Notes under the pieces: model-generated | Told to the model about the DNA's origin: nothing | Database searches by the model: none | What the model saw: the letters and a program-made list of their open reading frames with translations, nothing else | UHGV virus genome: UHGV-0057547 | Source: a virus | Length of the DNA: 64,000 bases | Reading direction: 5' to 3' (one strand) | Part shown: positions 2,783-63,201 of the stretch, one piece after another | Layout: each line of letters starts with the position of its first letter | How positions within the stretch are numbered: position 1 is the first letter of the stretch | Made by a program: the position numbers and the translations under genes

Positions 2783-2827
2783 AATATAAAATAAATAAAA
2801 TATAAGATAAAAAGGAGAATGAGACGA

Positions 2828-4604: not shown

Positions 4605-5169
4605 AACTGATTTTGCTGAATGGATAAGCAGATTAGGAAAATCATTTGAAGTTAAAATAGGTGAATATATAGTTAGAGGTATAGAAGATGCTTACTCTAG
4701 TTTAGGTGCTAAATTCGGTGTGACTGGTGCATACCAAGATGAAAAAATGGTTGAATTAATAGAAAGAGTTGAAGCTAAAACTGGACAAAAAGCTACTATA
4801 TACGGAACTAAAACTGCTTTAGCTAAATTAAGAACTGGTGCAGATGGTGCATTCCAAGCATACTTATCAGATAGCGACAAAGAAAACATAAGCAAAACTG
4901 GTAGAGTTGGAGATTACTACGGAACTCCTGTTGTTGAAATACCTCAATCAGTTAACAGAAAAGATGAATTTATGTTAAGTAATAAAATGCTTTATGTAAT
5001 ACCTAACGGAACTAAAATAATAAAATTATTATTTGAAGGCGATGTAGATGTTATAGAAGTATCTGACCCAGCAGTAAGAAAAGATATGCAATTTGAATAT
5101 ATGTTCATGAGAAGAATACAATTAGGTGTTTGTAAAGCTTCTGTTTATGGAATATACAAAATGAACTAA
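4605..5169 (+). CDS. Major capsid protein, exon 2
   Basis: The frame is open from 4561 and the ORF-track GTG start at 4720 is internal. Sequence ...TDFAEWISRLGKSF...VYGIYKMN. Confidence 0.55.
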
Positions 5170-18205: not shown

Positions 18206-18238
18206 GCTTATGGATAATAACAATAGAAATTACGCTGG
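18206..18238 (+). CDS. TMP 33-nt mini-exon (LMDNNNRNYAG)
   Basis: Exactly 11 codons lie between the B1 3' G (AGATAAAAAG|) and the A5 5' splice site GCTGGT|. The putative P1 is CUGGU with AGCCAG, including a U-G pair. Confidence 0.4.
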
Positions 18239-18620
18239 TTAGAATTAGCCAGGCTATATGGAGACATATAGTACAAATCTCTTTTGAATTGCTGGAAAGG
18301 ACTTAGAGCCTATTGAACTACAACGTAGATGGAAACATCAAACGTGAATGTTAAAAAATCAATAGGATTGTTCAATCAGCAGGTAAAATTCTAAGTGATA
18401 ATTTATCATATGAATAAACTTCAACGACTATCCCTTGGATTTGCTAATTTAGTAAATCAATAGGAGTACGGCTCAAGCGATTGGAGTGGGTGAGAATCCC
18501 TTAAATGGAAGTGGAAGAGGACTTATAAAAGTTCAAGATATAGTCTACTCTCGTAGGAAATCTACGAGCAGTCCTTTTTTTGGACGGTATGTATATAGCG
18601 AATACATATGAATATTAAGG
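18239..18620 (+). mobile_element. Group I intron A5, no ORF
   Basis: P2 hairpin CTATATGGAGACATATAG, P AATTGCTGGAAAGG at 18287, Q AATCAGCAGGTAAAATTCTAAG at 18375, R at 18421, S AAGATATAGTCTACTC at 18541. The 3' end is ...ATGAATATTAAGG. Confidence 0.7.
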
Positions 18621-19004
18621 AATAACTTCGCAATTTCATCTGATGGTGTAACAGAAGCATTACAACGTGGTGGTTCTGTATTATCTAACTATGGAGTAGA
18701 TTTAAAAGATTCCATTGCAATGATAACTGGAGCAAATGAATCTTTACAAGACCCTGCTCGTATAGGTAATGGTTTAAAATCTATAGCAATTAACCTTTCA
18801 GGTATTAAAACAAATGCACAAACAGGTGCTCTTGAATTAAATAAAACAGCAAAAGCATTACAAGAAACTGCTAAAATAGATATATTTACTGATAAATCTA
18901 AAACACAAGTTAAAGATATTGTTAGTATACTAGATGAAGTAAAAGATAAATGGGCTTCTTTGACTGATGTTGAACAAAAAGGATTATCAGAAGCCATAGC
19001 AGGT
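18621..19004 (+). CDS. TMP exon 3
   Basis: In-frame NNFAISSDGVTEALQRGGSVLSNYGVDLKDSIAMITGANESLQDPARIGNGLKSIAINLSG..., which is the typical TMP core region. Confidence 0.55.
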
Positions 19005-20151
19005 AGTATGTAAGATTTTGTCTTATTAATTTATTGAATAGACATTATACAAAAATAGTAGTATAATATAAGTAATAAATTAATAAGGAGGGAACTTTCA
19101 TGGGGAAAAGTTCAAAAGATAAATATGAATTAGGTAAAGAAATGTTTTTACAAGGGAAAACAACAATGAATATAGCAAAAGAATTAAATATATCAAGAAG
19201 TAGATTTTCAAGATATTTAAGGGAGTGTGGAATAGATAGTCAACAATATCATAAATTTCCTATAGATGAAAATGTTTTTAATGTAATAGATACAGAAGAA
19301 AAAGCGTACTGGTTAGGATTTTGGTTTGCAGATGGATATGTAAGTTCAAATAGAAATACAGTAGGTATTGATTTAAAACCGAGCGATTTAAATCATCTAA
19401 ATAAATTAAAAACATTTTTAAAATGGAAAGGCGATATAAAAGTAGAAGAAACTAGATGTAGATTAAATTTTAGAAATGATAAAATTAAGAATGATTTAAT
19501 AAAATATGGATGTGTTCCAAATAAATCATTAACGTTAAAATTTCCAAAATCTATAAAAGAAAGTTTTATTCCAGCTTTTATAAGAGGTTATTTTGATGGC
19601 GATGGCTGTTTATGTTACACTGAAAAGACATTAGAAGTAAGCGTAATAAGCACTTATGAATTTCTTGAATCTATATGCGACATAATTAACATTGATAAAA
19701 AAAGAATATATGATTTAAATAAAAATAAAAAAACAAGTCGTATAGTTCTTAGTTCAAAAAAAGATATTAAAAACTTTCTTGAATATATTTATAAAGATGC
19801 TAATATTTACTTAGATAGAAAATATGAAAAATATAAAAATCTTAAAACTGCCGTCTTTGATAGAAATATTAAAGATAATTAGAGGGATGTATCGGTGAAG
19901 CCTAAGTCGAAAGATATGGTAATACCGAGGGTATCTTAACAGAGAATATCCGTAACGCATAGGGAGTGAGCGATATTGTTAGCAATAACCTCCCCACGAG
20001 CTTCCTCCACGATTATATATATAAGAATAATCACTTATAGATGTTGCTACTATAAGTTCTAACGTTAAACGAGAGTGAAAATATATGCTGGACTTATGAG
20101 AAATCATAAGAAGTGGATGTGTGAATTGACACACTATTAATAGATAAAAAG
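19005..20151 (+). mobile_element. Type-B intron-like insertion B2 with a LAGLIDADG ORF
   Basis: The ORF begins right after the 5' junction. The post-ORF core matches B1 (AGAGGGATGTATCGGTGAAG...AATACCGAG...TAACGTTAAACGAGAG...AGATAAAAAG). Confidence 0.5.
19100..19882 (+). CDS. LAGLIDADG homing endonuclease, double-motif
   Basis: The two LAGLIDADG-type motifs are YWLGFWFADGY and IRGYFDGDGC. RBS AAGGAGGG. Confidence 0.75.
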   Translation: MGKSSKDKYELGKEMFLQGKTTMNIAKELNISRSRFSRYLRECGIDSQQYHKFPIDENVFNVIDTEEKAYWLGFWFADGYVSSNRNTVGIDLKPSDLNHLNKLKTFLKWKGDIKVEETRCRLNFRNDKIKNDLIKYGCVPNKSLTLKFPKSIKESFIPAFIRGYFDGDGCLCYTEKTLEVSVISTYEFLESICDIINIDKKRIYDLNKNKKTSRIVLSSKKDIKNFLEYIYKDANIYLDRKYEKYKNLKTAVFDRNIKDN

Positions 20152-20286
20152 CTCCACGATAACAAATCGAAAACTCAAGCCGGTGTATTCCAAGCATTAA
20201 TGACAGGTTGGGAAAGAGTTCGTCAATATCAAAAAGAATACAATGAAGGTTGGATGATAGGTTCAGCTCAAAGAGAGAAACAACAT
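20152..20286 (+). CDS. TMP exon 4
   Basis: Open frame LHDNKSKTQAGVFQALMTGWERVRQYQKEYNEGWMIGSAQREKQH. It ends at a codon boundary on U, before intron sequence TCTCCGTATGTACAG. Confidence 0.4.
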
Positions 20287-20658
20287 TCTCCGTATGTACA
20301 GAAATGTGCATAGGACATAGATTTAATTGCAGGTAATCCCTAAAGCTCTACACCACAATATATCTGAAAAGAATATATGAAGGTACGAAAGTAGAAAAAA
20401 CGTAGAGATTCTCATATGGTTAAATCCTAAGTGAGAGTAACAATGGGTGTTCATGCAGGTAAGATTCTAAGTGATAATTTATCATATGAATAAACTTCAA
20501 CGACTAGAATGCAAATTCGTAGGGTGTAAGCGATTGACACTCGAAAAGGTCTACCCTTAATATTAAGGTGAAGAAATAGTCTACTCTTATAGGAAACTAT
20601 AAGCAGTTTTCATATAAAGAAAACGGATTAAGTGTAGCGAACTTAATTGAATAAATGG
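20287..20658 (+). mobile_element. Group I intron A6, no ORF
   Basis: P variant AATTGCAGGTAATCCC at 20327, Q GTTCATGCAGGTAAGATTCTAAG at 20460, R at 20497, S GAAGAAATAGTCTACTC. The 3' end is GTGTAGCGAACTTAATTGAATAAATGG. Confidence 0.65.
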
Positions 20659-23600
20659 AATGAAATCTATATGGATTCCATTGCTGGTAAATTTAATACT
20701 TTAAAAGAAAATCTTAAAGGAATATTAACTAGCAATGTTACAACAGATATGTTTAAAGGACTATTAGATGGTGCTAATAAAGTAGTAGAAGCAGTAGGAA
20801 AAATAAGTTCAAGCTTAGGTAAAATTGGTTCTGCTGGTGCATTAGTAGGTATTTCATCTTTTGTAAAAACTTTATCAAATTTAGATAAAGCTAAAACAAT
20901 AGGTGGTGGTTTTACAGGATTTGATAACCTATTAGAAGTAATACAAGGTACTGCTGTTACTTCTTCCGGTGAAATAAAAACACTAGGCGATAGTTTTAAA
21001 GAATTAGGTGTTAAGACAACTCTATCTAAAGTAGCATTAGGATTATTTAAAGGTGTATTAATGGGTATTGCATTTACTGCTGTTGTTAAAGGAATAGATG
21101 CTATGGTAAAAGCATGGGACAATTATATTCATGCAACAGAAAATGCAGTAAAGGCTTCTAAAGAAAGACAAGATGGATATAGAGACGAAGCACAAACATT
21201 AAGTACTAAAAAATCAAGTCTACAAGAAATAGCTAAAGAATATGATAATTTAAATAATAAATCTGATAAAACTGCTGAAGATTTAACTAGATTAAATGAA
21301 TTAAAACAACAAATAGGACAAATAGCTCCTGACCTTGTTAAAGGATATGATTCAGCAGGTAATCCAATATTAAATCTTACTACTAGTATGCAAGGTTATA
21401 TAGCTGAATTAGATAAAGCAATCGCTAAACAACGAGAACTATATAATTATGAAACTAAAAAACAAGCACGAGAATATATGAAGAAAAATGACACTAAAAA
21501 TGGTGCTCAAGACCCTGAAAGAAATTCTTATGAAACTGAATTAAATCATCTTCAAAATGCAAATGATAGAAAAACTAGAGAAGAAAAAAGATATACTGGT
21601 AGTTTAAAAAATATTATTAAAGATAGAAATAAATATAGAGAAGACCAAGAAAAAAGTATTAATGATAGATTAGAAAGAATTAGAAATGCACAAACAGAAG
21701 TTAATAATAGAGATACTACAATTGAAGATAATTATGTTAACGAATTTAATAAGAAAACTAAATTAGCCGAAAAAGAACAAAATAAATTTGCTACTTTTAT
21801 GAAAGGACTAAATTGGGGTACTTATGGTGAAGCAGAAGCCAATAGAATGGCTAAAGGTTTACAAACATTATCTGAAAAAACTGCGTTTACAACTCAAGAA
21901 ATGACAAAAGGATTATCAGGTAGTATGTCAAAAAAAGTTTCAGCAGAAATTGCTAAAGTAAATGCAGAATTCAAAAAGACAAATGCCATAAACGAATGGG
22001 GAAAAAATTTAAGAAATATAGCTAATGAAACAGGAAAATTTGATTTTTCAAATTGGAGTAATTACTTATCAGAAGTTCAAACTCGTTTTGAACAAGGAGT
22101 AAGTACTAATGAACAATATACACATTCATTAGGAATCATGGCTGATGCTATGGAAGATTTAACTGGTATAGATTCAGATGTATTCTTACCAGCTTTAAAA
22201 GGTGGAGCAGATTTAGAAGAAGCCTTTAAATCAGCAACTGAAGGTTTAAATGGTTTTATGAGTGCTTATGGTTCTTCTACTGCAAAATTACAACAAGGCG
22301 ATTCATTTGCTAAAAAGTTAGAGTCTCAATTTAAAGAACTTGAAAATTTTGAAACTGAATTTGAAGGTCAATATGAGATGGAAGGTAAAGTTAGGGTAGA
22401 CTGGTTAATAGAACAAAAAGATAATAAAGATTTACCTAAACAATTAAGAACTATAATAGATGCGGTAACAAAAGACAATGAAGTAACAGAAGTAGAAGAA
22501 AAATTAGTATTAGCCTGTGAAACAGAAATAAAAGATAAAGGTAAGTTGGAACAAAGTACAATAGATGCAATAAATCAAGTAATGGACGGAACATGGGATG
22601 TAAATAAAACTATTGAAATAGGTGGTATGGAATTTACATCATCTGAAATAAAAGAATTAATGTCATTAGCTGACCAATTAGGTATATCTTTAGAAGGCTT
22701 AAATATTGGTGATACAGGATTAGATGGAGAAGCTCAAAAAGCTCAAGCATTAAAAGATGCAATAGATTCAATCTCAGATAGAGAAATAAAAGTAGCAATA
22801 GAGGCTGAAGGATTTGAAAATTCCGACCAAGTTAACAATATAATGTCAGTTGTTGACCAAATAGATGGAAGACAAGCTAAAGTTGATTTTATAGCAGATG
22901 CTTCTCAATACTTTATGGAAAATGATAGTGTTGAATCAGCAATAGAAGCTATGCCTGATGAAATAAAACTTAAATATAATATTGGGGTTGAAGGTGATGA
23001 AAGACTAGAAGGAATACAAAGTAGACTTGAAAAATTACCAAAAGATATTAGAACTATGGTATATGCTCAAACATATGGTGTAGAAAATGTTGAAATGCTA
23101 GAAAAAATGGTAGATACTTTTGGTGGAAAAACTGCAACAGCAATATTACAAATAGAAGGTATACAAGATTCTCTTAAAAATGCTACTACATTTGAGGAAC
23201 AATTAAAAATAATTGGAGACTATGTATGTAAACCTGGAGTAGAAATAGAAGGTAAAGATAAAATACTTGACACAATTGATAGCATATTAAAGAAATTAAA
23301 AGAAACAGATGGTAAAGAAGGTAAAGCTAAAGTAGAAGTAGAAGGAGATACTTCAGGAGCTGAGAAAGTAGAGAAAAAAGTAGAAGAAGTAGATGGTAAG
23401 GAAGGTAAAGCTAAGGCAAAAGTTGATGGAGATACTTCAGGAGCAGATAAAGTAGAGAAAAAAGTTGATGAAGTGGACGGCAAGGAAGGGACTGCTAAAG
23501 TAAAAGTAGATGCTGATACTTCTGAAGCTGAAAAAGCTAAAAAAGAAGTAGACAATTTAGCTGTTAATAAAAATGGTACAGTTACTTTATTAGTAAATGG

Positions 23601-27270: not shown

Positions 27271-27498
27271 AAATTTAGCCTGGTTGTCGAGTAATCGGCT
27301 TCAAAAATAATAGATTTAATTGCAGGTAATTCCTAAAGCCTTACACCACAAGCACAGAGAAATCATGTGTTGAAGGTACGAAAGTAGAAAAAACGTAAGG
27401 ATGGATATAAGGTTAAATCCTAAGTATCCAAACATATTTATATATGTTAAAATGGATGTTCATGCAGGTAAGATTCTAAATTAAATTATTTTAAATAT

Positions 27499-27541
27499 TT
27501 GACTTTTAATAAGATAAATTGTATAATATAAGTAAAGAGAG
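27499..27541 (+). promoter_or_regulatory. Sigma70-like promoter and RBS driving the intron-encoded HNH ORF
   Basis: TTGACT-17 nt-TATAAT with the TGTATAAT extended form, then AGAGAGGTGG as RBS. Confidence 0.5.
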
Positions 27542-28444
27542 GTGGAATATATGGGTCAAAAATTGAATAGAAAAAAAATAGAAAAATATATAAATCAATA
27601 TAATTATGAAGTTTTATATTGTAAACATGATAAAAATAAATATAAATGGAAACTCATTTTAATGTGCCCTAATTTTCATATTTTCAAAATGGATTTTGAT
27701 AAATTTCAAAATAATAGAAGATGCCCTTGTTGTAATGGTTCTAAGTATAATGAAGATTTTGTTAGAGAATATATGTTAAATAATGGAGATATACTTTTAT
27801 CTCATTATCATAATGGAAATGAAAAATTAAAAGTAATGTGTAAATATGGTCATATTTTTTATCCAATATTTAATAATTACTATAATAAAAATTCAAGATG
27901 TCCATATTGTAATGGGAATATAACTATGGAGCATAAAAGTTTTATTAATAGATTAAATACAATTAACCCTAACATAGAAATATTGGGTGAATATAAAAAT
28001 AGTCATACTAAAATTAAATGTAAGTGTAAAATAGATGGGCATGAATGGGAGGCAAAGCCTACTAATCTATTAGGAAGTAAAAATGCAAAACCAACTGGAT
28101 GTCCAAAGTGTTATAGACGAACTTATCGAGGTGAAACACATCCTTTATTTGACCATAGTAAAACAAAAGAAGATAGAGAAGATGATAGAAGTTATTTTGA
28201 ATATAATGAATGGAGAACTAAATGTTTTGAGAGAGATAAATATACTTGTCAAGTTACCGGACAACAAGGTGGAAGATTAGTAGTACATCATTTATATTCT
28301 TATAATAAATATTATTGTTTAAGAACGACATTGGAAAATGGTATAACAATATCAGAAGAAATACATAAAAAATTCCATTCTATTTATGGAAATGGAAATA
28401 ATACATTCGAACAATGGGAAGAATTTATTAAAAGTTTAAAATAA
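27542..28444 (+). CDS. Intron-encoded HNH endonuclease with N-terminal zinc-ribbon modules
   Basis: The zinc-ribbon modules resemble those of the Vsr-like family. The C-terminus carries CQVTGQQGGRLVVHHLYSYNKYYCLRTTLENGITISEEIHKKFH. Confidence 0.65.
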   Translation: MEYMGQKLNRKKIEKYINQYNYEVLYCKHDKNKYKWKLILMCPNFHIFKMDFDKFQNNRRCPCCNGSKYNEDFVREYMLNNGDILLSHYHNGNEKLKVMCKYGHIFYPIFNNYYNKNSRCPYCNGNITMEHKSFINRLNTINPNIEILGEYKNSHTKIKCKCKIDGHEWEAKPTNLLGSKNAKPTGCPKCYRRTYRGETHPLFDHSKTKEDREDDRSYFEYNEWRTKCFERDKYTCQVTGQQGGRLVVHHLYSYNKYYCLRTTLENGITISEEIHKKFHSIYGNGNNTFEQWEEFIKSLK

Positions 28445-28642
28445 TTTAACATGAATAAACTTCAACGACTATCCCTTGGATTTACTAATTTAGTAAATCA
28501 ATAGGAGTACGGCTCAAGTGATTGGAGTGGGTGAAATCCCCTTAAATGGAAAAGGTCTACTCCTACAATTGTAGGATGAAGAAATAGTCTTGACACGTTT
28601 TGAAAGAAAGTGCTTAGAATTAACTAAGGTTTATAAAATGCG

Positions 28643-29006: not shown

Positions 29007-29217
29007 TAAATTAGCTCCTTTTACTAAGTAATTAGTATTAAAACTCATTGAATTGCTGGAACTTCCTAAAGCTAACTAAACTACAATATGGCTAGAAATG
29101 GCGAATATGAATGTGGCGAAAGCAGAAAAAATTAGTTAGATATTCATATGGTTAAATCCTAAGTGAATATAAATGGATAATCAGCAGGTAAGTGCCTAAA
29201 TTTATTTTATAAAATAA

Positions 29218-29268
29218 TTGACTTTTAATAAGATAAAACGTATAATATAAGTAAAGAAAGGGGTTGAG
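29218..29268 (+). promoter_or_regulatory. Sigma70-like promoter and RBS driving an intron-encoded endonuclease
   Basis: TTGACTTTTAATAAGATAAAACGTATAATATAAGTAAAGAAAGGGG is nearly identical to the cassette at 27499. Confidence 0.5.
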
Positions 29269-30360
29269 ATGATGAAAAAACATGATTATAAATTTATTAA
29301 AGAATATGTTGAAAGTTTTGGATATAAATTATTATCAACAGAATATAAAAATGCTAATACTAAATTAAAAATAGAATGTCAAGAAGGACATATGTTTGAA
29401 AGAACATTTAGTAAGTTTAAACAAACTCAAAATTGTCCATATTGCACTAATACTAGAAAATGGAATATTTTAGAAATAAAAGAGTATTTAAAAAACATAG
29501 GTTATACATTATTAAGTACAGAGTATAAAAATAATCAAACCAAATTAGATATGATTTGTTCAGAGGGACATAAAATACAAATGACTTTAGGAAATATCCA
29601 ACAAGGTAAAAGATGTCATATATGTTCAAGAAAAACAGCTTCAGAAAAAAGAAAACATGATTATGAATTCGTTAAGCAATATATTGAAAATGAAGGTTAT
29701 AAATTATTATCCAAAACATATATAAATCAAGATGAAAAATTAAAAATAAGATGTTCGAAAGGTCATATATTTTTAATGAGTTTTTGTAAATTTAAACAAG
29801 GTCAAAGATGTCCTCAATGTTGTAAAAATAAAAAAATGTCTCATAAAGAATTTTTAGAAAAATTCTATAATCAAAATTACAATACTGAAAATATAGAAAT
29901 ATTGAGTGAATATATAAATGCTAAGACGAAAATAAAATGTAAATGTCTAAAAGACGGTTGTATTTGGTATGTTATACCTAATAGTTTACTAAACGGAACT
30001 GGTTGTCCTCAATGTAACGAATCTAAAGGAGAAAAAAGAGTTGCTAAATATTTAGATAGTAGAAATATAGAATATGAAAGACAATATAAATTTAATGATT
30101 GTAAAAGTAACAAAGAGTTACCTTTTGATTTTTATATACATAGTTTAAATATAGCTATAGAATATGATGGTGGACAACATTATATGATAGTAAACCATTT
30201 TGGAGGACTTAATGGATTTATAACTACTAAAATACATGACACTATAAAAACACAATATTGCAAAAATAACAATATTCGTTTAATAAGAATACCATATTGG
30301 GATTTTGATAATATAGAAAATATACTAAGTCAATTATTAAATATAAATATGAATAAATAA
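29269..30360 (+). CDS. Intron-encoded zinc-ribbon / Vsr-DUF559-like endonuclease (paralog, 4 modules)
   Basis: ELPFDFYIHSLNIAIEYDGGQHY...IRLIRIPYWDF. Confidence 0.7.
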   Translation: MMKKHDYKFIKEYVESFGYKLLSTEYKNANTKLKIECQEGHMFERTFSKFKQTQNCPYCTNTRKWNILEIKEYLKNIGYTLLSTEYKNNQTKLDMICSEGHKIQMTLGNIQQGKRCHICSRKTASEKRKHDYEFVKQYIENEGYKLLSKTYINQDEKLKIRCSKGHIFLMSFCKFKQGQRCPQCCKNKKMSHKEFLEKFYNQNYNTENIEILSEYINAKTKIKCKCLKDGCIWYVIPNSLLNGTGCPQCNESKGEKRVAKYLDSRNIEYERQYKFNDCKSNKELPFDFYIHSLNIAIEYDGGQHYMIVNHFGGLNGFITTKIHDTIKTQYCKNNNIRLIRIPYWDFDNIENILSQLLNINMNK

Positions 30361-30508
30361 GGCAAAACTTCAACGACTATATATACTAGTAGTCTAGTTA
30401 GTGGTGAGCATCCTTATGGGATGATGATATAGTCTACTCTCATGTGAAAGCATGAGCAGTTCATAAGAGAACGGTATAAGGTTTAACGAACTTTATATGA
30501 ATATTAAG

Positions 30509-30910
30509 GTGTTTACAGATATTGATGGAAATATCAAAACTCTTCAAACAGCATTAATGGATTTTGCTAATACAAGTTCTGATTATTTTGGAGTTATGGG
30601 TGATTCATTAAAGAAAGAATTGTTAAATAATCTTAATGTAGCATTAGAGACTATGAAAGAACTTCAAAAAATGTCAGATAATTATACTGCTCCTAATATA
30701 GATTATAGCAATACAGTACTTCCAAAAGATAGTGGTATTAATACTTCTCCACAAGTTTCTAGTAATGTTGAAACTAATAATATTACAATTGGAGATACTA
30801 ATATTACAATTCAAGGTGGTGCAGATGATGTTACTTTAGGAAAAGTAGATGAAATGTTAAAAGATTACAAAGCAAGCATTTGTAAGGAAATTGTTAAAAA
30901 TATGAAATAA
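30509..30910 (+). CDS. TMP terminal exon
   Basis: VFTDIDGNIKTLQTALMDF... The ORF-track ATG at 30497 is intronic sequence ATGAATATTAAG. Confidence 0.45.
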   Translation: MFTDIDGNIKTLQTALMDFANTSSDYFGVMGDSLKKELLNNLNVALETMKELQKMSDNYTAPNIDYSNTVLPKDSGINTSPQVSSNVETNNITIGDTNITIQGGADDVTLGKVDEMLKDYKASICKEIVKNMK

Positions 30911-53755: not shown

Positions 53756-55138
53756 ATGGCAACAGAAGGTAAAAAAATAAGTCAATTAACAGAAGTGTTA
53801 AGTGTTGACAAAGAAAATGACTATATAATCGTACAACGTGGGACAGATAATAAAAAGTTAAAATTAGCCAATGTGATGACTACGGATAATATGGGCGACA
53901 ATTATGTTGATTTAAAATCATATGAAGATAAAAGTGAATTCAGATTAATTATAAATGATGATGGAAAAGTTCAAGTATTTCCAAAAGAATGCGTTGAAGG
54001 TCATACTTATGCTGAAAATGATAATTTACAAATGCCCTTAAAATTAGCTAGCTATATAGGTAATTCTCAAACTGCATTATCTACTGCTAATAATGGAGGT
54101 ATTGTTATAAATCAAATTTATGGTGGTGGAGATTTAATTCCTAGTTCAACTTTACAAGCACCTAGCGTTAGTCATAGTTTTGTTGAACTATATAATTGTA
54201 ATGTTGTAGATATTAATCTAAAGGGATTATATTTACATTATAAAGGTAATGATGAAACTGTTTGGAAAACATTAGCATTAAGAGGACTTTTACCAGCTCA
54301 TACTGCTTTTTTAATTAGAGGTAAACAACACGGAGATTTAATGAGTGACTTAGTAAGATGTAAAATATATGATTATGACCAAGAATGGATAGATGCTGAT
54401 AAAAATGAACCAATAGCATTTAGTAGAAATGGTATGTCAATGTATTTATCAACTAACTCAGTACCTCCTGAAGTAAATGAAAATCCAAATAGATATCTTA
54501 TAACTACTGATAGTACTGGTGTATCAACATTATCATATGTTGATGGATATTATGTAGATTTATTAGGTGTAGGTAGTGCTGATGGAACTAAGAACCCAGT
54601 TGCATATGAAAAATTCTATTGGACTTGTATGGATAAAGATACTGCAATAAGAAGAATAGATTTTTACAATAATAAGAATAACAAATATGATTCAAAAGCT
54701 ATAAATTATAAAACTTGCAATATAGAACATTATAGACCAAGAAGTTTAAGAGATGGAATTTGGGATAACTATTGTGATAAAGCAAGTATAAATGAAAATA
54801 TACCTAATCTTATAGATATAACTTTTGGTGAACAACCTACAACAAGACTTTTTACATGGCAATCTGTTTTAACAGATAATGGTTGTGTGAGACTTAGAAG
54901 AATAAAAGATAAAAGTGGAGTAGCAGTAACTGAAAATTGGAAAGAATATGAAAGTGAACGTGAAATAGTTAATAATCATGGTACATTTATGACAATACAT
55001 AGAACTAAAATAACTAATATAACACCTGGTTTATATGAATATCAATGTGGAAAAGAAGGTTATTGGTCAGATATACAAATGATAGAAATGAGAGAATATA
55101 CAGATACTAGCACTATTAAAATGCTATGGACTACGGAT
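53756..55138 (+). CDS. Lamin-tail-domain / purple acid phosphatase-like metallophosphoesterase, exon 1
   Basis: The lamin-tail-domain motif is SFVELYNCNVVDINLKGLYLHY. The PAP N-terminal domain motif is ...TPGLYEYQCG. Confidence 0.5.
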
Positions 55139-55463
55139 TAATTTTAGTCCCTATGTAAAGAAATTTATATAGCAAACCCTTTGAATTGCTGGAAAACCCT
55201 TAGAGCCTTAATACTACAATAGAGAGGAAACTACTCTATGAAAGTTTGAAAAGTTTAAGGATTGGGTAATCAGCAGGTAAGATTCTAAATTACTATAAGT
55301 AATATGAATAAACTTCAACGACTAAGTATCCTAGTAGTCTAGGTAGTGGAGGGCATCCCTTCATGGGATGATGATATAGTCTACTCTCATGTGAAAGCAT
55401 GAGCAGTTTTCTTTGAGTAAGAAAACGGATAGAATAATAGCGATATTCTATTGAATATAAAGG
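55139..55463 (+). mobile_element. Group I intron A9, no ORF
   Basis: P GAATTGCTGGAAAACCC at 55185, Q AATCAGCAGGTAAGATTCTAAATT at 55268, R at 55313, S GATGATATAGTCTACTCTCATGTGAAAGCATGAGCAGTT. The 3' end is ...GAATATAAAGG. Confidence 0.65.
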
Positions 55464-55586
55464 CAACAAGGATTCACACAACCTGAATATGAGGCTTGGA
55501 GAACTTGTGTTAAAGCTATGCAAACTAGAACTGATTTTTATAATAGTTATGGTTTGCCTGTATTTGATTTTCATTTGAATACTGGA
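55464..55586 (+). CDS. Metallophosphoesterase exon 2 (41 codons)
   Basis: QQGFTQPEYEAWRTCVKAMQTRTDFYNSYGLPVFDFHLNTG. Splicing onto DISQNA recreates a GDxxY-like motif. Confidence 0.45.
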
Positions 55587-56747
55587 GTAACAAATTAAGC
55601 TCCCTATGTAAGTAAATTGCATAGCAAACCCTTTGAATTGCTTGTAATCCCTAAAGTCAACTAAACTACAACGTGGCTAGAAATGGCGAACGTGAATGTG
55701 GCGAAAGCAGAAAAAATTAGTTGAATGGTATATGGTTAAACCCTAAGTACTTTTGTAATGGGTGTCTAGCAGGTAAGATTCTAAATTAAATTATAAAATT
55801 AAGTTTATTTTTTATAAAAATATAAGTATAATATAAATAGGGGGTGAATATTATGGGTAAACGTAAAATGAGTGAAGAACATAAAAGGAAACGATTAGAT
55901 ATAGTTAAAAAGAAATGTGATGAATTAGGCTATACATTATTGACAAAAGAGTATATTAACAATAAAACAAAATTAGAAATTGTATGTGATAAAGGACATT
56001 TATGGACACCAACTTTTGATAATTTCATTATGAAAGATAGAAGATGTAGAAAATGTGCTGATAAACAAAATGGTATAAATCAAAGGTTATCTTGGGAAGA
56101 AGTGCTAAATAGAGTAGAACCTTATGGATATAAAATGATTAGCAATAAAGAAGATTATATCAATCAAGATTCTAAACTCAAAGCCTTATGTCCAAATGGA
56201 CATATTTATAAATTTAGTATAAATAATTTTCAACGAGGTAAAAGATGTTCTCAATGTAAAATGTCCGGTGGCGAACAGGAAATATCAAGAATATTGAATA
56301 AATATTCTATAGAATATAAATTCAATTATAAATTCAATACGAATAATATAATAAAAACAAAGCCTTTTGATTTTAAAATATTAAATAAAAACATATGTAT
56401 TGAATATGATGGACAACAACATTATCATTTTCAATTTGATAATAATCTTTTAGATTTAATGAATAGAAAACATATAGATACTATAAAAACAAAATATTGC
56501 GAAGACAATAATATAAAACTTATTAGAATTCCTTATTGGGAATTTGATAATATAGAAAATATACTTATAAAAGAACTTAATTTAAAATAATTTAATATGA
56601 ATAAACTTCAACGACTATATATACTAGTAGTCTAGTTAGTGGAGGGCATCCCTTCATGGGATGATGATATAGTCTACTCTCATATGAAAGTATGAGCAGT
56701 TCATAAGAGAACGGTATAAAGTTTAACGAACTTTATATGAATATTAG
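55587..56747 (+). mobile_element. Group I intron A10 with an endonuclease ORF
   Basis: The 5' sequence is GTAACAAATTAAGCTCCCTATGTAAGTAAATTGCATAGC. P GAATTGCTTG at 55648, Q GTCTAGCAGGTAAGATTCTAAATT at 55768, R at 56603. The 3' end is ...ATGAATATTAG. Confidence 0.7.
55844..56590 (+). CDS. Intron-encoded zinc-ribbon / Vsr-DUF559-like endonuclease (paralog)
   Basis: KPFDFKILNKNICIEYDGQQHYH...IKLIRIPYWEF. Confidence 0.7.
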   Translation: MNIMGKRKMSEEHKRKRLDIVKKKCDELGYTLLTKEYINNKTKLEIVCDKGHLWTPTFDNFIMKDRRCRKCADKQNGINQRLSWEEVLNRVEPYGYKMISNKEDYINQDSKLKALCPNGHIYKFSINNFQRGKRCSQCKMSGGEQEISRILNKYSIEYKFNYKFNTNNIIKTKPFDFKILNKNICIEYDGQQHYHFQFDNNLLDLMNRKHIDTIKTKYCEDNNIKLIRIPYWEFDNIENILIKELNLK

Positions 56748-56846
56748 GACATTTCACAAAACGCCTCTAATTTATTTGAATGGTTATATTACACTGATTA
56801 TGCTAAAGAATTTTGTAGAAATATACCTCATTTAACAGCTTGTGGT
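56748..56846 (+). CDS. Metallophosphoesterase exon 3 (33 codons)
   Basis: DISQNASNLFEWLYYTDYAKEFCRNIPHLTACG ends in GUGGU. The putative IGS GCCAC lies in the intron and includes a U-G pair. Confidence 0.45.
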
Positions 56847-57161
56847 AAATGTTAGCCACCTTTACATAGTGATATGTAATGAAAAACTCATTGAATTGCT
56901 GGGAAGCCCTAACGTAAAGACGAGGGTAATCAGCAGGGAAGTCTCTTTAAAATGGGAAACCTTCAACGACTATCCCTTGGATGTTGAAATACATCAATAG
57001 GAGTACGGCTCAAGTGATTGGAGTGGGTGAAATTCCCTTAAATGGAAGTGGTGAGCATCTCAATGGAGATGAAGATATAGTCTACTCTCATATGAAAGTA
57101 TGAGCAGTTTTGTATATATACAAAACGGATTAAGTGTAGCGAACTTAATTGAATATAAAGG
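56847..57161 (+). mobile_element. Group I intron A11, no ORF, with a short P5
   Basis: P AATTGCTGGGAAGCC, Q AATCAGCAGGG, R at 56963, S GAAGATATAGTCTACTCTCATATGAAAGTATGAGCAGTT. The 3' end is GTGTAGCGAACTTAATTGAATATAAAGG. Confidence 0.65.
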
Positions 57162-57563
57162 AATAATGACCTTGTTGATAAAAAATATGGATTTGCTTAT
57201 GACCATTATGTAACATTTGAAAATCAACCAAGATTAAATGATTATCATAAAGAAGTTTTAGCAACAACAGATTTTCCTATGGTATCAACTTATTCATTTG
57301 ATTTAGGGTCTACTCATTTCATATGTTTAAATTCAAATCAAGAACAAATGTATGATGATTATGGTATAAATCAAACAGAATTCTTATTAAAACAAGCATA
57401 TTTCCTAGATAGAGATTTATGGAAAGTTAGTAAAAGAACTACAAAACCTAAATGGGTAATTGTATATGCACATTTAAGTCCATTTACTGTAACAAGAGCA
57501 AAAAGATTACAACATTGGATACCTATACTTGAAAAATATGGTGTAGATTTATTCTTATGTGGT
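57162..57563 (+). CDS. Metallophosphoesterase exon 4
   Basis: NNDLVDKKYGF... contains the GNHD/E-like motif. ...KWVIVYAHLSPF... and ...DLFLCG follow. Confidence 0.5.
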
Positions 57564-57936
57564 CAAGTTGACCTGGTTGTCGAGTAATCGGCTTCAAAAA
57601 TTACAGATTTAATTGCAGGTAATTCCTAAAGCCTTACACCACAATAGAGGGGGAAACTACTCTATGATGGTATGAAAGTAGAAAAAACGTAAGGATTCTT
57701 ATATGGTTAAACCCTAAGTAAGAGTTAACAATGGATGTTCATGCAGGTAAGATTCTAAGTTGCTATAAGCGATATGAATAAACTTCAACGACTAGAGCAT
57801 AAGCTCGTACACTCAAGCGAGTGGAAAAGGTCTGTCCCTATATAAATAGGGTAAAGAAATAGTCTAATATCCTAATGAAAGTTAGGGCTAGAGTAATTCT
57901 AGGCTTGTAAGTAGCGATTACAAGAACAATATAATG
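57564..57936 (+). mobile_element. Group I intron A12, no ORF. Its 5' 110 nt are nearly identical to A7.
   Basis: CAAGTTGACCTGGTTGTCGAGTAATCGGCTTCAAAAATTACAGATTTAATTGCAGGTAATTCC. R at 57783, S AAAGAAATAGTCTAAT. It ends at ...ATATAATG. Confidence 0.6.
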
Positions 57937-58548
57937 CACAATCACACATATTCAAGAAGTATACCAATCAAATGTGGATATGAAAAATCTGCATATGCAG
58001 ATATGATTAATGAAAAAAATTATAATACTTATGTACCAAAAGGTGGTAAAAATTATACTTTAGTGAATGAAACAAAATTAAATGGTAGTGAAATAACTAG
58101 AAGTGCTAATATATCTCAAGGTGTTTATTATGTTATGTTCCAAGCAGGTGGGGCTAAACAAAGTGGTAAAGAAAAAGCAATTGATATGAGTACTATAACA
58201 TTCTTAAATAGTACTGGTGGAACAGTAACAAGTGGTACTGAATATACTAAACATTTCCATAGTGGAACAAATAGACCTTGGTGGTATGAATACACTGGTG
58301 CTTTACCAGTACAACCTTGTTTTGCAACTTTGGATATTTCACCAACATCAATAAAAATAAGTATGAACTATGTTAAAGCAGTTGAAGCTATAGATAAAGA
58401 AACTGGTGTAATGACAGTAGATAAATATGACCCAAATAAACATACAATTGTTAACTTTGATAATTTAACAATAAATTATAGCGATAGAAATCCAGCTTAT
58501 AGAACTGGAGTATCTGCTCCTTATTATAATGAAAATAAAAATTATTAA
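57937..58548 (+). CDS. Metallophosphoesterase terminal exon
   Basis: Splicing ...LFLCG onto HNHTYSRS restores a GHxHxYxRS purple-acid-phosphatase motif. Confidence 0.5.
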   Translation, partial: HNHTYSRSIPIKCGYEKSAYADMINEKNYNTYVPKGGKNYTLVNETKLNGSEITRSANISQGVYYVMFQAGGAKQSGKEKAIDMSTITFLNSTGGTVTSGTEYTKHFHSGTNRPWWYEYTGALPVQPCFATLDISPTSIKISMNYVKAVEAIDKETGVMTVDKYDPNKHTIVNFDNLTINYSDRNPAYRTGVSAPYYNENKNY

Positions 58549-58561
58549 AGGGGATGGTTAA

Positions 58562-61282
58562 ATGTCTATTAAAAGATGTATTATTAAAGACGGAAAAGAA
58601 CAATGGATAGAAGTTGCTGGAGGAAGTAGTTCTATAAATACAGGTGAAGCAATAAATGTTAGTATAAGAGATAATGATAATCTATTTGAAAGTCAAAACG
58701 TAGAAGGGGCTTTAACAGAAATATCTTATGAAATACAAAATGTAGACAATGTTTTAACCAATCATATAAACAATTCTGCTATACATGGTGGAGGTGGAGG
58801 TGGTGGTAGTATGCCTACCATCACTTCTGATTTTACTATAAATAAATCAGATGGTATAACTGAAATAGAAATACCTATATTTTTTAATTCACCTAACTTA
58901 GGAGAAGGTTTAGCTTATGTATTAGTTAATAATGTTGAGGTAGGTACACAAACAGTTCAACAAGGTAATAATACAATTATAGTTCCTCCTTTGGGAGCTG
59001 GTAAAAATATAATTATATCAATCTATGTAAAAGATAGAGCAGGACTAATATCTAACCAAATAAACTGGACAGTAACAAGTGGTGGTATAACATTAACAAT
59101 GCTTACTGACACAAGTGCAGATTATGGTATTACAAGTAGAATAGTTTTATCATATACAATATCTTCTATGACTGGTGAAGATATTGAAGTTTTCTTTGAT
59201 GTAGATGGTACAACATATAAAACAAAAGGTACAAATGGATATAATACTTATGAAATTACAGGATTAGATATAGGAGTGCATGTTATAACTTATTGGGCAA
59301 TATCAGCTGAATATGAAACAAAACACAGCACATTCACATTAATAGTAGTAAGTAAAGACCAAGTAATAATATCAACTCAATTTGATTCAACTGTTGAATA
59401 TGAAAGTGGTATACCAATTAGTATACCATATAGATTATCAGTAGATAGAGATGAAGATTTTACTGTAAATTTATATATAAATAATGTTTTAGATAAAACT
59501 ATAGTAACTAGACCAGCTTCATTGTATTGGACTATATCATCATTAGATGCAGGTGATTATACTTTAAAAATAGAAGCGAAAAATGAATCTTTAGGAATGA
59601 GTAATTATATAGAATTTAAATGTAAAGTTATTCAAGGTGAATATACTAGAATACAACCAGTAATAGATAGTTCTTTAATAGCTTGGTTTGATGCAACAGA
59701 TAGAACTAATAATGATAATGATAGAGATGTTTGGACAGATAAAATAAAAGGTAATAAAGGTTATCTTCATAATTTCAACTATGGTTCTAATGGATGGTTA
59801 AAACAAACTGGTAAAGAAATTAGTGAACTTGTTATGAATGGTACTGCTTATGTTGAAATTGATATGACACCTTTTGCTGATAACTTTAAAAATGGTGGTG
59901 TAATTGAATTAGTATTTAAAACTAGAGATGTTGGTAATAGTAACGCTAGGGTTTTAGATATAACTGATACATTGTCACCATATAAAGGTGTTTATATAGA
60001 TACAAGAGAAGCATACTTATCTACTTCATCACAATCTATAAATGGTTCTATAGGTGAAGATGAATATATACAAGTGTTATATAATATAGATAGAATTAAT
60101 AAATATTGTCATATAGTTGTTAATGGAGTAATAATAAAATCTTGTAAATTAGCTGATAGTGGTAGTGGTACTTCTGCTATATTAGAATCATTGGCTCACA
60201 CTAAAAAGATTTATTTAAACTGCCAAAAAGGAACTGATAATTTTGGTTCTTGTGAAATAACACATTTAAGAATATATGATAGAAACTTTACTTTTGATGA
60301 AATATTACAAAACTTTTTATCAAATTATGATGACTTAAAAGTACAAAAAAGTAAATCGGATTTTAACAATCCATTAAAAAATATAATGCCTGTTATGAAT
60401 ATAACAGCTGACCAAAAACGTTTAGATGATATGACAGATACAAATAGAGTTGAAGTTGCTATGACATATACATCACCTAATGCTGATTTATATGGACAAA
60501 CTTTAACAAATGCTAGTAACTGCTTAATGTATTGGCAAGGTACATCTTCTATAGCATATAATATTAAAAACTATAATATATTACTTAGAGATGAAAATAG
60601 ACAACCAATAATGTATAGTCCTTTTAAAAATTGTATACCACAAGATTTATTTTGTTTAAAAGCAAACTTAATGGAATCTACTAATGCTCACAACGTAGGT
60701 ATAGCTGAATATGTTCATGATTACCTGTATACAACCTTAAATCCAGCACAAAAAATAGATAGTAAAGCTAGTAGAACAGTACAAGGTTTCCCTATATTGC
60801 TTTATATAAATGGTGAACTACAAGGAGTATATGACTTCAACTTAGATAGATATTCAACAAAAGCATTTGGATATGAATTAGATGAATATAAAGATACTTG
60901 TAGAGTATATGAAGTTTCAGCAAATACTAATAAAACTGCTGGTGCATTTATTCCTTGGACTAAAGAAACAGGTATGGATGAATGGACATGGTATAAAAAT
61001 GACTTTGTTGGTATATATCCTGAACGTATACAAAATTCAATTAATGATGATTTCTCTGCATTAAAAACACTAATATCATTTGTGCATGATTCTACCGATG
61101 AAGTTTTTACTACAAATTTTGCCACATATTTTGATAAGGAATCAGTAATAAGATATTATATTTTAGTAATGGTTTTGGGAATGGTAGACTCACTTGGTAA
61201 AAATGCTAAGTTAGTAACATTTGATGGTGTTAAATGGGAAATGCAATTCTATGACTGTGATACGGCTTTTGGGTTAAAATAA
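58562..61282 (+). CDS. CotH-like tail protein, exon 1. An N-terminal Ig-like domain follows a poly-Gly linker. The 3' boundary is uncertain.
   Basis: HGGGGGGGS linker. The C-terminal region ...VMVLGMVDSLGKNAKLVTFDGVKWEMQFYDCDTAFG resembles the CotH D.D..FG region. Confidence 0.4.
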   Translation: MSIKRCIIKDGKEQWIEVAGGSSSINTGEAINVSIRDNDNLFESQNVEGALTEISYEIQNVDNVLTNHINNSAIHGGGGGGGSMPTITSDFTINKSDGITEIEIPIFFNSPNLGEGLAYVLVNNVEVGTQTVQQGNNTIIVPPLGAGKNIIISIYVKDRAGLISNQINWTVTSGGITLTMLTDTSADYGITSRIVLSYTISSMTGEDIEVFFDVDGTTYKTKGTNGYNTYEITGLDIGVHVITYWAISAEYETKHSTFTLIVVSKDQVIISTQFDSTVEYESGIPISIPYRLSVDRDEDFTVNLYINNVLDKTIVTRPASLYWTISSLDAGDYTLKIEAKNESLGMSNYIEFKCKVIQGEYTRIQPVIDSSLIAWFDATDRTNNDNDRDVWTDKIKGNKGYLHNFNYGSNGWLKQTGKEISELVMNGTAYVEIDMTPFADNFKNGGVIELVFKTRDVGNSNARVLDITDTLSPYKGVYIDTREAYLSTSSQSINGSIGEDEYIQVLYNIDRINKYCHIVVNGVIIKSCKLADSGSGTSAILESLAHTKKIYLNCQKGTDNFGSCEITHLRIYDRNFTFDEILQNFLSNYDDLKVQKSKSDFNNPLKNIMPVMNITADQKRLDDMTDTNRVEVAMTYTSPNADLYGQTLTNASNCLMYWQGTSSIAYNIKNYNILLRDENRQPIMYSPFKNCIPQDLFCLKANLMESTNAHNVGIAEYVHDYLYTTLNPAQKIDSKASRTVQGFPILLYINGELQGVYDFNLDRYSTKAFGYELDEYKDTCRVYEVSANTNKTAGAFIPWTKETGMDEWTWYKNDFVGIYPERIQNSINDDFSALKTLISFVHDSTDEVFTTNFATYFDKESVIRYYILVMVLGMVDSLGKNAKLVTFDGVKWEMQFYDCDTAFGLK

Positions 61283-61421: not shown

Positions 61422-62279
61422 GTGTGTAAGAAAGAGAATAGTTTTGCACAATGGTTTATAAATGAATTTGGATTAGAAAAATTTAACACTGTTATAAATC
61501 ATGAAAAAAATAAATCATTAGGCATAGATATTTGGAACGTATCAAAGAGAAGTGGTTGTAAAATTTGGTTTAAATGTGAAAATAAAGATTATCACGAATA
61601 TCAACTTACAGCCGATAAATATTTTATTGGTAATAGATGTAAATATTGTGGTAGAACAAAATATGTTCATCCAAGAGATTCGTTAGGTCAATATATAATT
61701 GATAACTTTGGAGAAGATTTTTTAAATAGAGTATGGTCAACAAAAAATAAAAAATCGCCTTTTGAATATACTATTGGAACTGAGAAGAAAGTTTGGTTTA
61801 ATTGTATCAATGGTATTCATGAACCAAAATTAAGACAAATAAAAAATTCTGTTGCTAACGATTTTAAATGCCCATTTTGTTTAAAAAATTGCCATATTTC
61901 AAAATTAGAAAAGAAAGTGTTTTTATATTTAAAAAGCATTTTTAAAAACATAAATAGAGAAAGCAATTGTAATTTAATACCCAAAAATCCTAAAACTAAT
62001 AAAATAATGCCTTATGATAATGAGATAGTGGATATAAAATTAATAATAGAAGTACATGGAAAACAGCATTATGAATTATCAGGAGATACAAGTGCATGGT
62101 TACATGGATTATCACCAAAAGAGTATCTTCATAAAAGAAAATTGTATGATAGGTATAAAAGAATGTACGCAAAGTCCAATGGTTATTATTATTTAGAAAT
62201 ACCTTATTGGGCTGATGATTTAGAAGAAACTTGGAAAATTATGATTGATGATAAAATAAAAGAAATATTAAGTCAATAA
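61422..62279 (+). CDS. Divergent zinc-ribbon / PD-(D/E)XK-like endonuclease inside C1
   Basis: C..C modules and IIEVHGKQHYE...LEIPYW. Promoter TTGACA-17-TGTATAAT and RBS GGAGGTG lie upstream. Confidence 0.5.
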   Translation: MCKKENSFAQWFINEFGLEKFNTVINHEKNKSLGIDIWNVSKRSGCKIWFKCENKDYHEYQLTADKYFIGNRCKYCGRTKYVHPRDSLGQYIIDNFGEDFLNRVWSTKNKKSPFEYTIGTEKKVWFNCINGIHEPKLRQIKNSVANDFKCPFCLKNCHISKLEKKVFLYLKSIFKNINRESNCNLIPKNPKTNKIMPYDNEIVDIKLIIEVHGKQHYELSGDTSAWLHGLSPKEYLHKRKLYDRYKRMYAKSNGYYYLEIPYWADDLEETWKIMIDDKIKEILSQ

Positions 62280-62448
62280 ATAATAGGGGAACAACGACTA
62301 AGCGAAAAGGGCTTGTAAAACAAGTATGCAATAGTCTGAACTCACACTATAACTCAAAATATTAAGAAATGTGAGAAGAGGGGTCATCGGTAATCAGACC
62401 GATAGTTTAAAATTATTTCATATAAAATAAAAGAGGGGTGATAAAATA

Positions 62449-63201
62449 ATGAAGAAAAGAAATTATAATCATTTAATAGGTAAAAAAATTGGTTCAATAA
62501 TTGTACTTGGAATAAATGAAGAAGAAAGTGAAATAAAAAAAAGATGTATTTTAGATATAAAATGTGATTGTGGAGAATTAAAATGCGTTAGAGCAAGTGA
62601 TGTTGAAAGTGGAAATGTTAAGACTTGTGGAAAACGTAAAATTCATAAAATACAATATTATGATAATATAGAAGGTCAAAAATTTGGAAAATTAACAGCT
62701 ATTAAATATACATCTACTATAAATAAACATGCTTATTGGTTATGTGAATGTGAGTGTGGCAATTATTGTATTGTACAATCTTCAAACTTAAAAACAAATC
62801 ATACTACTTCATGTGGTTGTAATAAAATAACAAATACTAATGGAACATTTATAAAACATTTAAGAAATATCCTAAAACCAATAACACTTAAAAAGATAGA
62901 AGATGCTGATTATAAATGTGAAATTTTAAATAAAGAATGTGAAATACAAGTGCATCACATAATACCTTTTAAAGATTTATATGAAAAAACATTAGCTGAC
63001 TTGAATATTGACTTCAGAAAAGAATTAAGTCAATATAATATGGATGAAATAAAAAGAATAGATGATTATTTTTTAAAATTAAACTCGACAGATATTCTTA
63101 TTGTTATTTCTTCTGAACTCCACATGTCTTTTCATAAAAAATATGGATATAAAAATTTTAAAAAAGAAGATTTTGATGAATTTATAAATAGTGTGAAATA
63201 A
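62449..63201 (+). CDS. HNH endonuclease inside C1
   Basis: CEILNKECEIQVHHIIPF...SSELHMSFHKKYG, with cysteine-rich N-terminal modules. RBS AAGAGGGGTG. Confidence 0.55.
   Translation: MKKRNYNHLIGKKIGSIIVLGINEEESEIKKRCILDIKCDCGELKCVRASDVESGNVKTCGKRKIHKIQYYDNIEGQKFGKLTAIKYTSTINKHAYWLCECECGNYCIVQSSNLKTNHTTSCGCNKITNTNGTFIKHLRNILKPITLKKIEDADYKCEILNKECEIQVHHIIPFKDLYEKTLADLNIDFRKELSQYNMDEIKRIDDYFLKLNSTDILIVISSELHMSFHKKYGYKNFKKEDFDEFINSVK

Follow-up and report, generated by a model that had tools for sequence, protein, structure and literature searches.

The window analysed here is the whole 64,000-nucleotide (64-kb) stretch of virus genome UHGV-0057547, and this study concerns a single interrupted gene near its end. 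Five open reading frame (ORF) segments on the + strand, within positions 53756-58548, join into 2619 nt that encode 872 amino acids (aa) with no internal stop. The locus is very probably one gene for a phosphoesterase resembling purple acid phosphatases (PAPs), invaded by four related IA-type group I introns that appear to be mobile. Its parts are given below; a slash marks a splice junction, and bit scores refer to the Rfam model RF00028, which has 253 positions and a gathering score of 50 bits.

53756..55138, + strand: exon 1, aa 1-461, with the N-terminal region, a beta-sandwich like the lamin-tail domain (LTD), the PAP N-terminal domain and motif I ending at Asp461 (…LWTTD)
55139..55463, + strand: intron 1, 325 nt, no ORF; P1 GGAU/…GUCC with canonical U·G; 3′ end …AAAGG; 95.4 bits (55130-55403)
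55464..55587, + strand: exon 2, aa 462-502 and the first base of the Asp503 codon, QQGFTQ…FHLNTG
55588..56748, + strand: intron 2, 1161 nt, its P6a loop containing an ORF; P1 GGAG/U…GCUCC; 3′ end …UUAGG
55844..56590, + strand: the ORF of intron 2, 248 aa from GTG, with a probable start at ATG 55853 after GGGGGTG; CapR/treble-clef zinc-finger repeats and a C-terminal nuclease-like region
56749..56846, + strand: exon 3, the remainder of the Asp503 codon to Gly535, DISQNASNLFEWLYY…HLTACG
56847..57161, + strand: intron 3, 315 nt, no ORF here; P1 GUGGU/…GCCAC with canonical U·G; 3′ end …AAAGG; 98.4 bits (56841-57104)
57162..57563, + strand: exon 4, aa 536-669, NNDLVDKKYG … VYAH639LSP … DLFLCG
57564..57936, + strand: intron 4, 373 nt, no ORF here; P1 GGU/CAA…UUGACC; 3′ end …AUAAUG; 53.4 bits (57553-57887)
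57937..58548, + strand: exon 5, aa 670-872 and the stop, with H670-N-H672-TYSRS and a C-terminal beta-rich region

The exon map is anchored in uninterrupted relatives. Of about 5.8 billion proteins searched, 271 proved to be relatives of the spliced protein; 47 of these (P0001-P0047) are uninterrupted homologues, 847-881 aa long and 52-75% identical over 99-100% of the query. All four junctions match the family consensus in the alignment (LWTTD/QQGFT, FHLNTG/DISQNA, CG/NNDLVDKKYG and LFLCG/HNHTYSRS), and the ligated junctions are predicted to read ACGGAT/CAACAAGG, ACTGGAG/ACATTTCA, TGTGGT/AATAATGA and TGTGGT/CACAATCA. The five-exon, four-intron structure proposed in the initial annotation is borne out in that each predicted junction yields the product of the intron-less homologues. 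One junction needs adjusting: that of intron 2, placed at 55586/56748, gives the identical protein because of a repeated G, and its coordinates are better set at 55587/56749. Intron-less alleles are known for every site, for sites 1 and 4 in genomes more than 98% identical and for sites 1-3 in locus L008 and in P0001-P0047; exon 1 is joined directly to exon 2, with no intron, in L001-L004. Automatic annotation splits the gene into separate ORFs of 461/505, 102 and 204 aa, and neither exon 2 (41 aa) nor exon 3 (33 aa) brings its own start codon. A comparison of exons 3-5 in the window with those in L013 gives 45 synonymous against 21 non-synonymous codon differences and no stops, an excess which indicates that these exons are translated in the joined frame.

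The four inserts are mutually related and share a P3-P9 core (…UUCAACGACUA…GAUAUAGUCU…), P7.1-type inserts and P9.1/P9.2 extensions. Folding predicts a P1 hairpin for each, and at the junctions demanded by protein colinearity the last intron nucleotide is G in all four, in keeping with the omega-G rule. The 3′ half of intron 2 alone scores 30 bits, the ORF insert splitting the intron; the orthologue in L001, 365 nt long and without an ORF, scores 71.1 bits, and both halves of intron 2 match it at 94-99% identity. Intron 4 is 80% identical to another intron core at 20319-20583. In-frame stops lie 0, 3, 2 and 7 codons past the 5′ splice sites of introns 1-4, that of intron 1 being a TAA immediately after the site. 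As a family, the introns show DNA similarity to introns of Staphylococcus (Twort-like), Bacillus, Enterococcus and Clostridium phages. By these sequence features the four are IA-like group I introns. After transcription each ribozyme would cut itself out, exactly and with the frame restored, and the ligated mRNA would encode the intact enzyme. Inteins were rejected, there being no in-frame insert, and so were group II introns, for which there was no match. The insertion sites also share exon sequence: introns 3 and 4 both follow the hexamer UGUGGU (Cys-Gly codons) in different motifs (CG/NND and CG/HNH), and introns 1 and 2, together with introns at 629 and 8784, all follow GGA(U/G).

The geometry of the 5′ splice sites differs among the four. 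Introns 1 and 3 have a 5′ exon U that forms a U·G pair in P1. In intron 2 a G stands at position -1 and the U·G pair is displaced by one base into the intron, where it borders the P1 loop, and in intron 4 the U at -1 pairs with A instead of G. The invariant Asp503 can be obtained by only two junctions for intron 2, GGA/g…ag/GAC or GGAG/u…agg/AC, and alignment of the 3′ ends with those of introns 1 and 3 favours cuts at 55587/55588 and 56748/56749. A canonical U at -1 was rejected for intron 2, as no enumerated junction of that kind yields Asp503; shifting both ends by +1 was likewise rejected, as it gives Val503 and a terminal A. The orthologue of intron 4 in L008 has P1 GGG/U…GCCC, a compensatory change, and again G at -1; here the same +1 shift was discarded because it gives Tyr in place of His670.

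This arrangement recurs elsewhere in the window. GGAG/U…GCUCC is also required for in-frame joining of two other genes (introns 629-1027 and 8784-10127), and the intron of the major capsid gene has a GGGG/U…GCCCC version whose joined product fits the invariant G-R-x-D of its homologues. For group B IStrons, reverse transcription PCR (RT-PCR) has shown that the cut falls after a G and that the U·G pair is shifted (Tourasse et al. 2014, PMC4227781). The same work calls C at -1 exceptional. U at -1 passes for a universal rule by which intron databases are filtered; in PMC11835236, 16,427 intron candidates were rejected for not having it. On the combined grounds of selection, recurrence and the IStron precedent, we take the odd 5′ splice site of intron 2 to be real. 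Introns 1 and 3 would thus use the canonical U·G, while intron 2 would be cut after G (GGAG/U), one base 5′ of its U·G. We lean, by a narrow margin of confidence, towards the broader proposal that this endonuclease-bearing phage intron family routinely splices one nucleotide 5′ of the U·G, after G, and that the rule of U at -1 fails for the class. What fixes the splice site in the shifted class would be its distance from the P1 base, not the wobble alone; this distance is 4 bp in six of the nine cases examined.

A distant phosphatase homologue (L037:7257-8577, ~35% identical) is interrupted at a fifth site by a single intron of this family, which splits the Thr codon in …TTDQQAWT/VEE…. The -1 base of this intron is C, paired with a guide G, and across the junction the joined protein reads exactly as the L029 sequence, which is uninterrupted.

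At the protein level, profile searches with the spliced product recovered two of the domains of the initial annotation above cut-off: the calcineurin-type Metallophos domain (PF00149) at 34.4 bits (cut-off 21.5) and Pur_ac_phosph_N (PF16656) at 33.0 bits (cut-off 30) over aa 350-440. Our motif assignment follows the textbook PAP motifs, with ligands Asp, Asp, Tyr, Asn, His, His and His, the Tyr of GDxxY giving the Fe(III)-tyrosinate colour and GNH(D/E) the catalytic His. Across 17 full-length aligned sequences of the family, D461, D503, N536, H639, H670 and H672 are invariant. The position of the PAP Tyr ligand is Gln506 (GDISQ), with Gln in 16 of the 17 sequences and Glu in one, and the GNH(D/E) motif reads G535-N-N-D538 (GNND) in all 17. 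Six of the seven conserved metal ligands on which the earlier interpretation had staked itself are therefore present, the Tyr having given way to Gln506. Joining of the exons does rebuild the catalytic motifs, as had been proposed, in a form that is not canonical for PAPs (GDISQ and GNND).

The AlphaFold model, with a predicted local distance difference test (pLDDT) score of 78.5, puts every motif where a beta strand ends C-terminally, the arrangement of metallophosphoesterases. Its best PDB fold matches are plant PAPs (E 1e-16 to 1e-19; target template-modelling (TM) score 0.53-0.71), followed by PhoD, and the sequence similarity of the 872-aa protein to PDB PAP entries is marginal (E ~1e-3). 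In BFVD, Bacillus phage G gp352 and a crAss-like ‘phosphatase’ give the best fold matches, and the BFVD matches are labelled ‘phosphatase’ or unnamed. Like plant and mammalian PAPs (kidney bean PAP 1kbp/2qfp, lupin PPD1 3zk4) and PhoD (2yeq), the protein has an N-terminal fibronectin-like domain followed by a metallophosphoesterase sandwich, and it shares the Asp, Asp, Asn, His, His, His ligands of PAPs. It differs from PAPs in Gln506 for Tyr, in GNND for GNH(D/E), in an extra LTD-like domain and in a C-terminal domain of ~200 aa. Since the Tyr ligand and the GNH His are absent, the protein is PAP-like in fold and is not a canonical purple acid phosphatase. It is most likely a dinuclear-metal phosphoesterase that lacks the Fe(III)-tyrosinate site. 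Two phage proteins have a homologous full-length architecture and are encoded by uninterrupted genes: Bacillus phage G gp352 (‘metallophosphoesterase’), with 31% identity over 84% of the query, and crAss002 gp19 (‘phosphatase’), with 25% identity over 83% of the query, the latter in a structural block beside a giant protein.

The initial annotation had introns cutting the phosphoesterase domain at or beside metal-binding motifs, and this holds at all four junctions, including that of intron 1, which had not been listed. The junctions are D461/Q462, G502/D503 (within the Asp codon), G535/N536 and G669/H670; motif IV (H639) is the sole motif without an intron. About 14 of the 871 possible junctions touch the seven ligands, and the chance that all four junctions would do so is (14/871)^4 ≈ 7e-8 if the junctions are independent. 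It is established that homing endonucleases, and the guide sequences of introns with them, persist where DNA varies least. Such persistence accounts for junctions at ligand codons with no need for an intron role in the enzyme: the introns would settle beside these codons since the target DNA there cannot vary.

Occupancy of the four sites varies among relatives, as listed below. ORFs were read directly in the window, L001-L004 and L008/L009, and were judged by intron size in L010-L012 and L014.

Window: intron 1 present; intron 2 present with ORF; intron 3 present; intron 4 present
L001, L003 and L014: intron 1 absent; intron 2 present; intron 3 present with ORF; intron 4 absent
L002: intron 1 absent; intron 2 present; intron 3 present; intron 4 present with ORF
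L004: intron 1 absent; intron 2 present; intron 3 present with ORF; intron 4 present with ORF
L010 and L011: intron 1 absent; intron 2 present; intron 3 present (1229 nt); intron 4 present (1328-1349 nt)
L012: intron 1 present; intron 2 present; intron 3 present; intron 4 present (1328 nt)
L013 (~95% identical): introns 1, 2 and 3 present; intron 4 absent
L008 and L009 (77% identical): introns 1, 2 and 3 absent; intron 4 present with ORF

Intron 2 is found in all eleven loci from close relatives, and its empty target in L008 reads …AATACAGGTGATATTTCACAAAAT…. The long form of intron 3 (1229 nt) carries a 287-aa endonuclease-like ORF in L001, L003 and L004 and has the same size in L010, L011 and L014. 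Intron 4 carries ORFs of 257-302 aa in L002, L004 and L008 and is similarly long (~1.3 kb) in L010 and L012. Genomes more than 98% identical show empty sites 1 and 4, and introns 2-4 occur with or without an ORF; this variable occupancy and variable ORF content suggest that the introns have probably been mobile recently. The known homing cycle, in which an intron invades, loses its ORF and is itself lost, would produce such a pattern.

The ORF of intron 2 is a putative homing endonuclease. It matches Pfam CapR (3.5e-12) and DUF4379 (1.1e-5), weakly DUF559, and PHROG families 559, 9084 and 7140 (endonuclease, homing endonuclease and intron-encoded nuclease). Its identity to the ORFs of other introns in the window and in relatives is 37-44%. 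Intron ORFs from the window and its relatives are paralogues with 37-45% identity, and pairs at the same site are closer (71-84%); ORFs of one endonuclease family would have radiated into many introns. In L002 (7877-8689), exons 3 and 4 are 88% and 95.5% identical in amino acids to those of the window, and exons 1 and 5 ~99%. Co-conversion of flanking exons from another intron donor would fit this divergence.

Several observations weigh against parts of this interpretation. All four junctions derive solely from protein colinearity plus the terminal-G rule; introns 2 (G at -1) and 4 (U-A) lack the canonical splice-site wobble, which leaves their splicing efficiency uncertain, and intron 4 is a mere ~3 bits above the Rfam cut-off. 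The window's copy of the intron-2 ORF lacks one N-terminal repeat present in its paralogues, a PDB sequence search found no relative of it, and its DUF559 match is weak. The loss of the Tyr and of the GNH His casts doubt on phosphatase activity. The LTD of the initial annotation is below cut-off in the spliced protein itself (PF00932, 24.6 against 34.3 bits; E 3.5e-5; aa 110-191), and several homologues have precomputed PF00932 matches, so that an LTD in the spliced protein is likely. The only support for the description as a tail protein is the gene's position between Peptidase_S74 and CotH-like genes; exon 1 matches no PHROG family at E ≤ 1e-3, tail families included. Literature searches on LTD-phosphoesterase phage proteins yielded no usable result on role or virion location, and no virion proteomics came up for any homologue.

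Other explanations of the locus can be set against a single gene expressed through splicing. The most serious of them, which we consider improbable, is that only some introns splice correctly: introns 2 and/or 4 would be cut at their U·G or left uncut, the frame would shift, the main product would be ~505 aa long and consist of the N-terminal region, the LTD and the PAP N-terminal domain without the catalytic domain, and the later exons would be recent relics. Cutting intron 2 after U55588, at the canonical junction ACTGGAGT/ACATTT, does shift the frame, with a stop within a few codons at either terminal G; gene callers give 505-aa products in many assemblies (P0028, with 360 member sequences), and intron 2 is fixed in all close relatives. 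Yet across genomes that all bear intron 2, changes in exons 3-5 are mostly synonymous and introduce no stops, the shifted geometry recurs in the major capsid gene, which must be expressed whole, and RT-PCR has documented, for group B IStrons, cutting after a G where the U·G is displaced (PMC4227781).

Very unlikely, in our judgement, is a dead gene in which the inserts are selfish DNA that does not splice (free-standing endonuclease genes and degenerate ribozyme remnants), with the fragments either parts of a pseudogene or translated on their own. That automatic annotation sees separate ORFs (461/505, 102 and 204 aa) would agree with it, but three inserts match the full 253-position Rfam model above threshold, and the inserts are exact, their removal restoring every conserved residue. 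Moreover, exons 2 and 3 have no start codon, the substitution pattern of exons 3-5 is that of purifying selection, and the same arrangement is present in at least 11 independent assemblies. Assembly artefacts or chimeric metagenome contigs could be suspected in a window with no near match among isolated phages; the chance of this is negligible, as independent ENA and IMG/VR assemblies (contigs of 120-200 kb) repeat these introns, differently combined but each at its exact nucleotide position.

The reading of one gene with four spliced introns has partial precedents. Twort orf142 has three group I introns in one structural gene, and both splicing and exon skipping have been shown for it (Landthaler & Shub 1999, as cited in PMC11878797). 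It resembles the phosphatase gene in its several related IA-type introns within a late or structural gene, the short exons between them and the in-frame stops past the 5′ sites. The phosphatase gene differs in having four introns rather than three, a metallophosphoesterase as host gene and every junction at a metal ligand, and its splicing is predicted from sequence. Polymerase and terminase genes of Bastillevirinae have two or three group I introns (PMC11878797). Jug phages of the gut, whose genomes measure 360-402 kb, average 18.5 introns per genome, and metatranscriptomes confirmed splicing for about half of those tested (PMC12880540). Both groups resemble the window in split phage genes, polymorphic occupancy and endonuclease ORFs. 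Their introns lie mainly in DNA-metabolism and terminase genes, whereas those of the window lie in structural and tail-module genes, at a density (~13 in 64 kb) several-fold above that of Jug genomes. Neither four introns in a single gene nor a density near one per 5 kb is reached in the sources for these precedents; the mechanism itself is known.

Group B IStrons (BcISt1 of Bacillus cereus; PMC4227781) share with intron 2 and three other introns of the window a 5′ exon G, a first intron U and a shifted U·G at the P1 loop. IStrons carry IS200/IS605- or IS607-type transposases and transpose, whereas the window introns carry homing-endonuclease-like ORFs at homing-type sites in conserved codons. 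Identity with IStrons was rejected, as the intron-2 ORF matches only CapR, zinc-finger and endonuclease-like sequences, with no IS transposase.

Exons 2 and 3 are 124 and 98 nt long, and dropping either one shifts the frame, while dropping both (222 nt) keeps it. Joint skipping of the two would delete motif II and the Gly of motif III. By analogy with Twort orf142, exon skipping of this kind is conceivable, introns 1-3 being close paralogues.

The wider window is rich in the same intron family. Searches by blastn and core motifs place ~13 introns in the 64 kb, or about one per 5 kb. The genes hit are a scaffold- or protease-like one, that of the major capsid protein, several of the tail and the CotH-like one. 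Eight further introns belong to the family; boundaries are resolved for the first three listed.

629-1027: intron
3268-4601: intron of the major capsid gene, with an endonuclease-like ORF at 3517-4443
8784-10127: intron, with an endonuclease-like ORF at 9022-9948
~18283-18617: intron, compact and ORF-less
~20288-20653: intron, compact and ORF-less
~27279-28620: intron, with an endonuclease-like ORF at 27542-28444
~29008-30509: intron, with an endonuclease-like ORF at 29269-30360
~63740 to the window end: intron
2819-5169: major capsid gene, split by the intron at 3268-4601; joined product 338 aa
58562-64000: CotH-like region, with a 906-aa ORF matching the first two-thirds of the Pfam CotH profile, then endonuclease-like ORFs at 61422-62279 and 62449-63201

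The ORFs in four of these eight introns are 300-363 aa long, and a different intron probably occupies 61283-~63300. The joined capsid product aligns across its junction (…DDFRRG/RTDFAEW) with structural proteins of Clostridioides phages LIBA2945 and phiCD211 and of Brevibacillus phage Sundance. This alignment alone fits both G/U with a terminal G and U/A with a terminal C; alternative 3′ ends were rejected, as the homologues back the GRTD version. The CotH-like region further contains a P7-like element at ~62290-62340, a coding stretch at 63307-~63738 and an intron core from ~63740, and its gene is probably split by at least two introns. In L008 the ORF of the orthologue ends at about the same place, and the presumed C-terminal exon has no Pfam match.

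Rfam detects three of the ~13 introns, all ORF-less and all in the phosphatase gene. At permissive thresholds (E ≤ 1), RF00028 found no further introns in the whole window or in 18000-21000, though blastn and core motifs show them. Those it missed include the compact ORF-less introns at 18283-18617 and 20288-20653, one of which is 80% identical to the core of intron 4 (53 bits). Most introns of this phage would escape a standard Rfam annotation. This phage lineage may be the densest in group I introns seen so far, with most of them in structural genes.

The gene lies in a tail-fibre and host-recognition block of a large (~150-200 kb), low-GC phage of the human gut. Upstream are baseplate- or fibre-like giants of 1980, 858 and 2120 aa (GH16 and Big_13 in the 2120-aa one) and a 612-aa fibre-like protein with Peptidase_S74, and downstream is the CotH-like protein. 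The LTD-phosphatase-like gene and the adjoining CotH (kinase-like) gene span 53756-61282, and their pairing is kept in L001-L004 and L008. Major-capsid homologues suggest a Clostridia-type host, and among isolated phages a near-identity DNA search returned only a 72-nt intron match in a Bacillus phage. This neighbourhood, together with the place of crAss002 gp19 in a structural block, supports, without proving, a role in the virion or in host recognition. Our best guess is a virion-associated or released enzyme whose substrate would be a host surface polymer containing phosphate. That wall teichoic acid is the target, as raised in the initial annotation, is speculation; a capsule phosphodiester and extracellular DNA are further candidate substrates.

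PAP-like enzymes without the Tyr ligand are common to Bacillus phage G, crAss-like phages and UHGV-0057547, a widespread family that may act in host recognition. Within this family the gene offers a natural homing experiment, with four sites in one gene seen empty, filled without an ORF and filled with one. If the shifted splice site is true of these introns, it would extend the IStron oddity to ordinary mobile phage introns and would bear on how intron boundaries are defined. Automatic annotation fragments the phosphatase gene, the capsid gene and others, and Rfam finds few of the introns, so that for gut phages of this kind both gene content and intron load come out too low.

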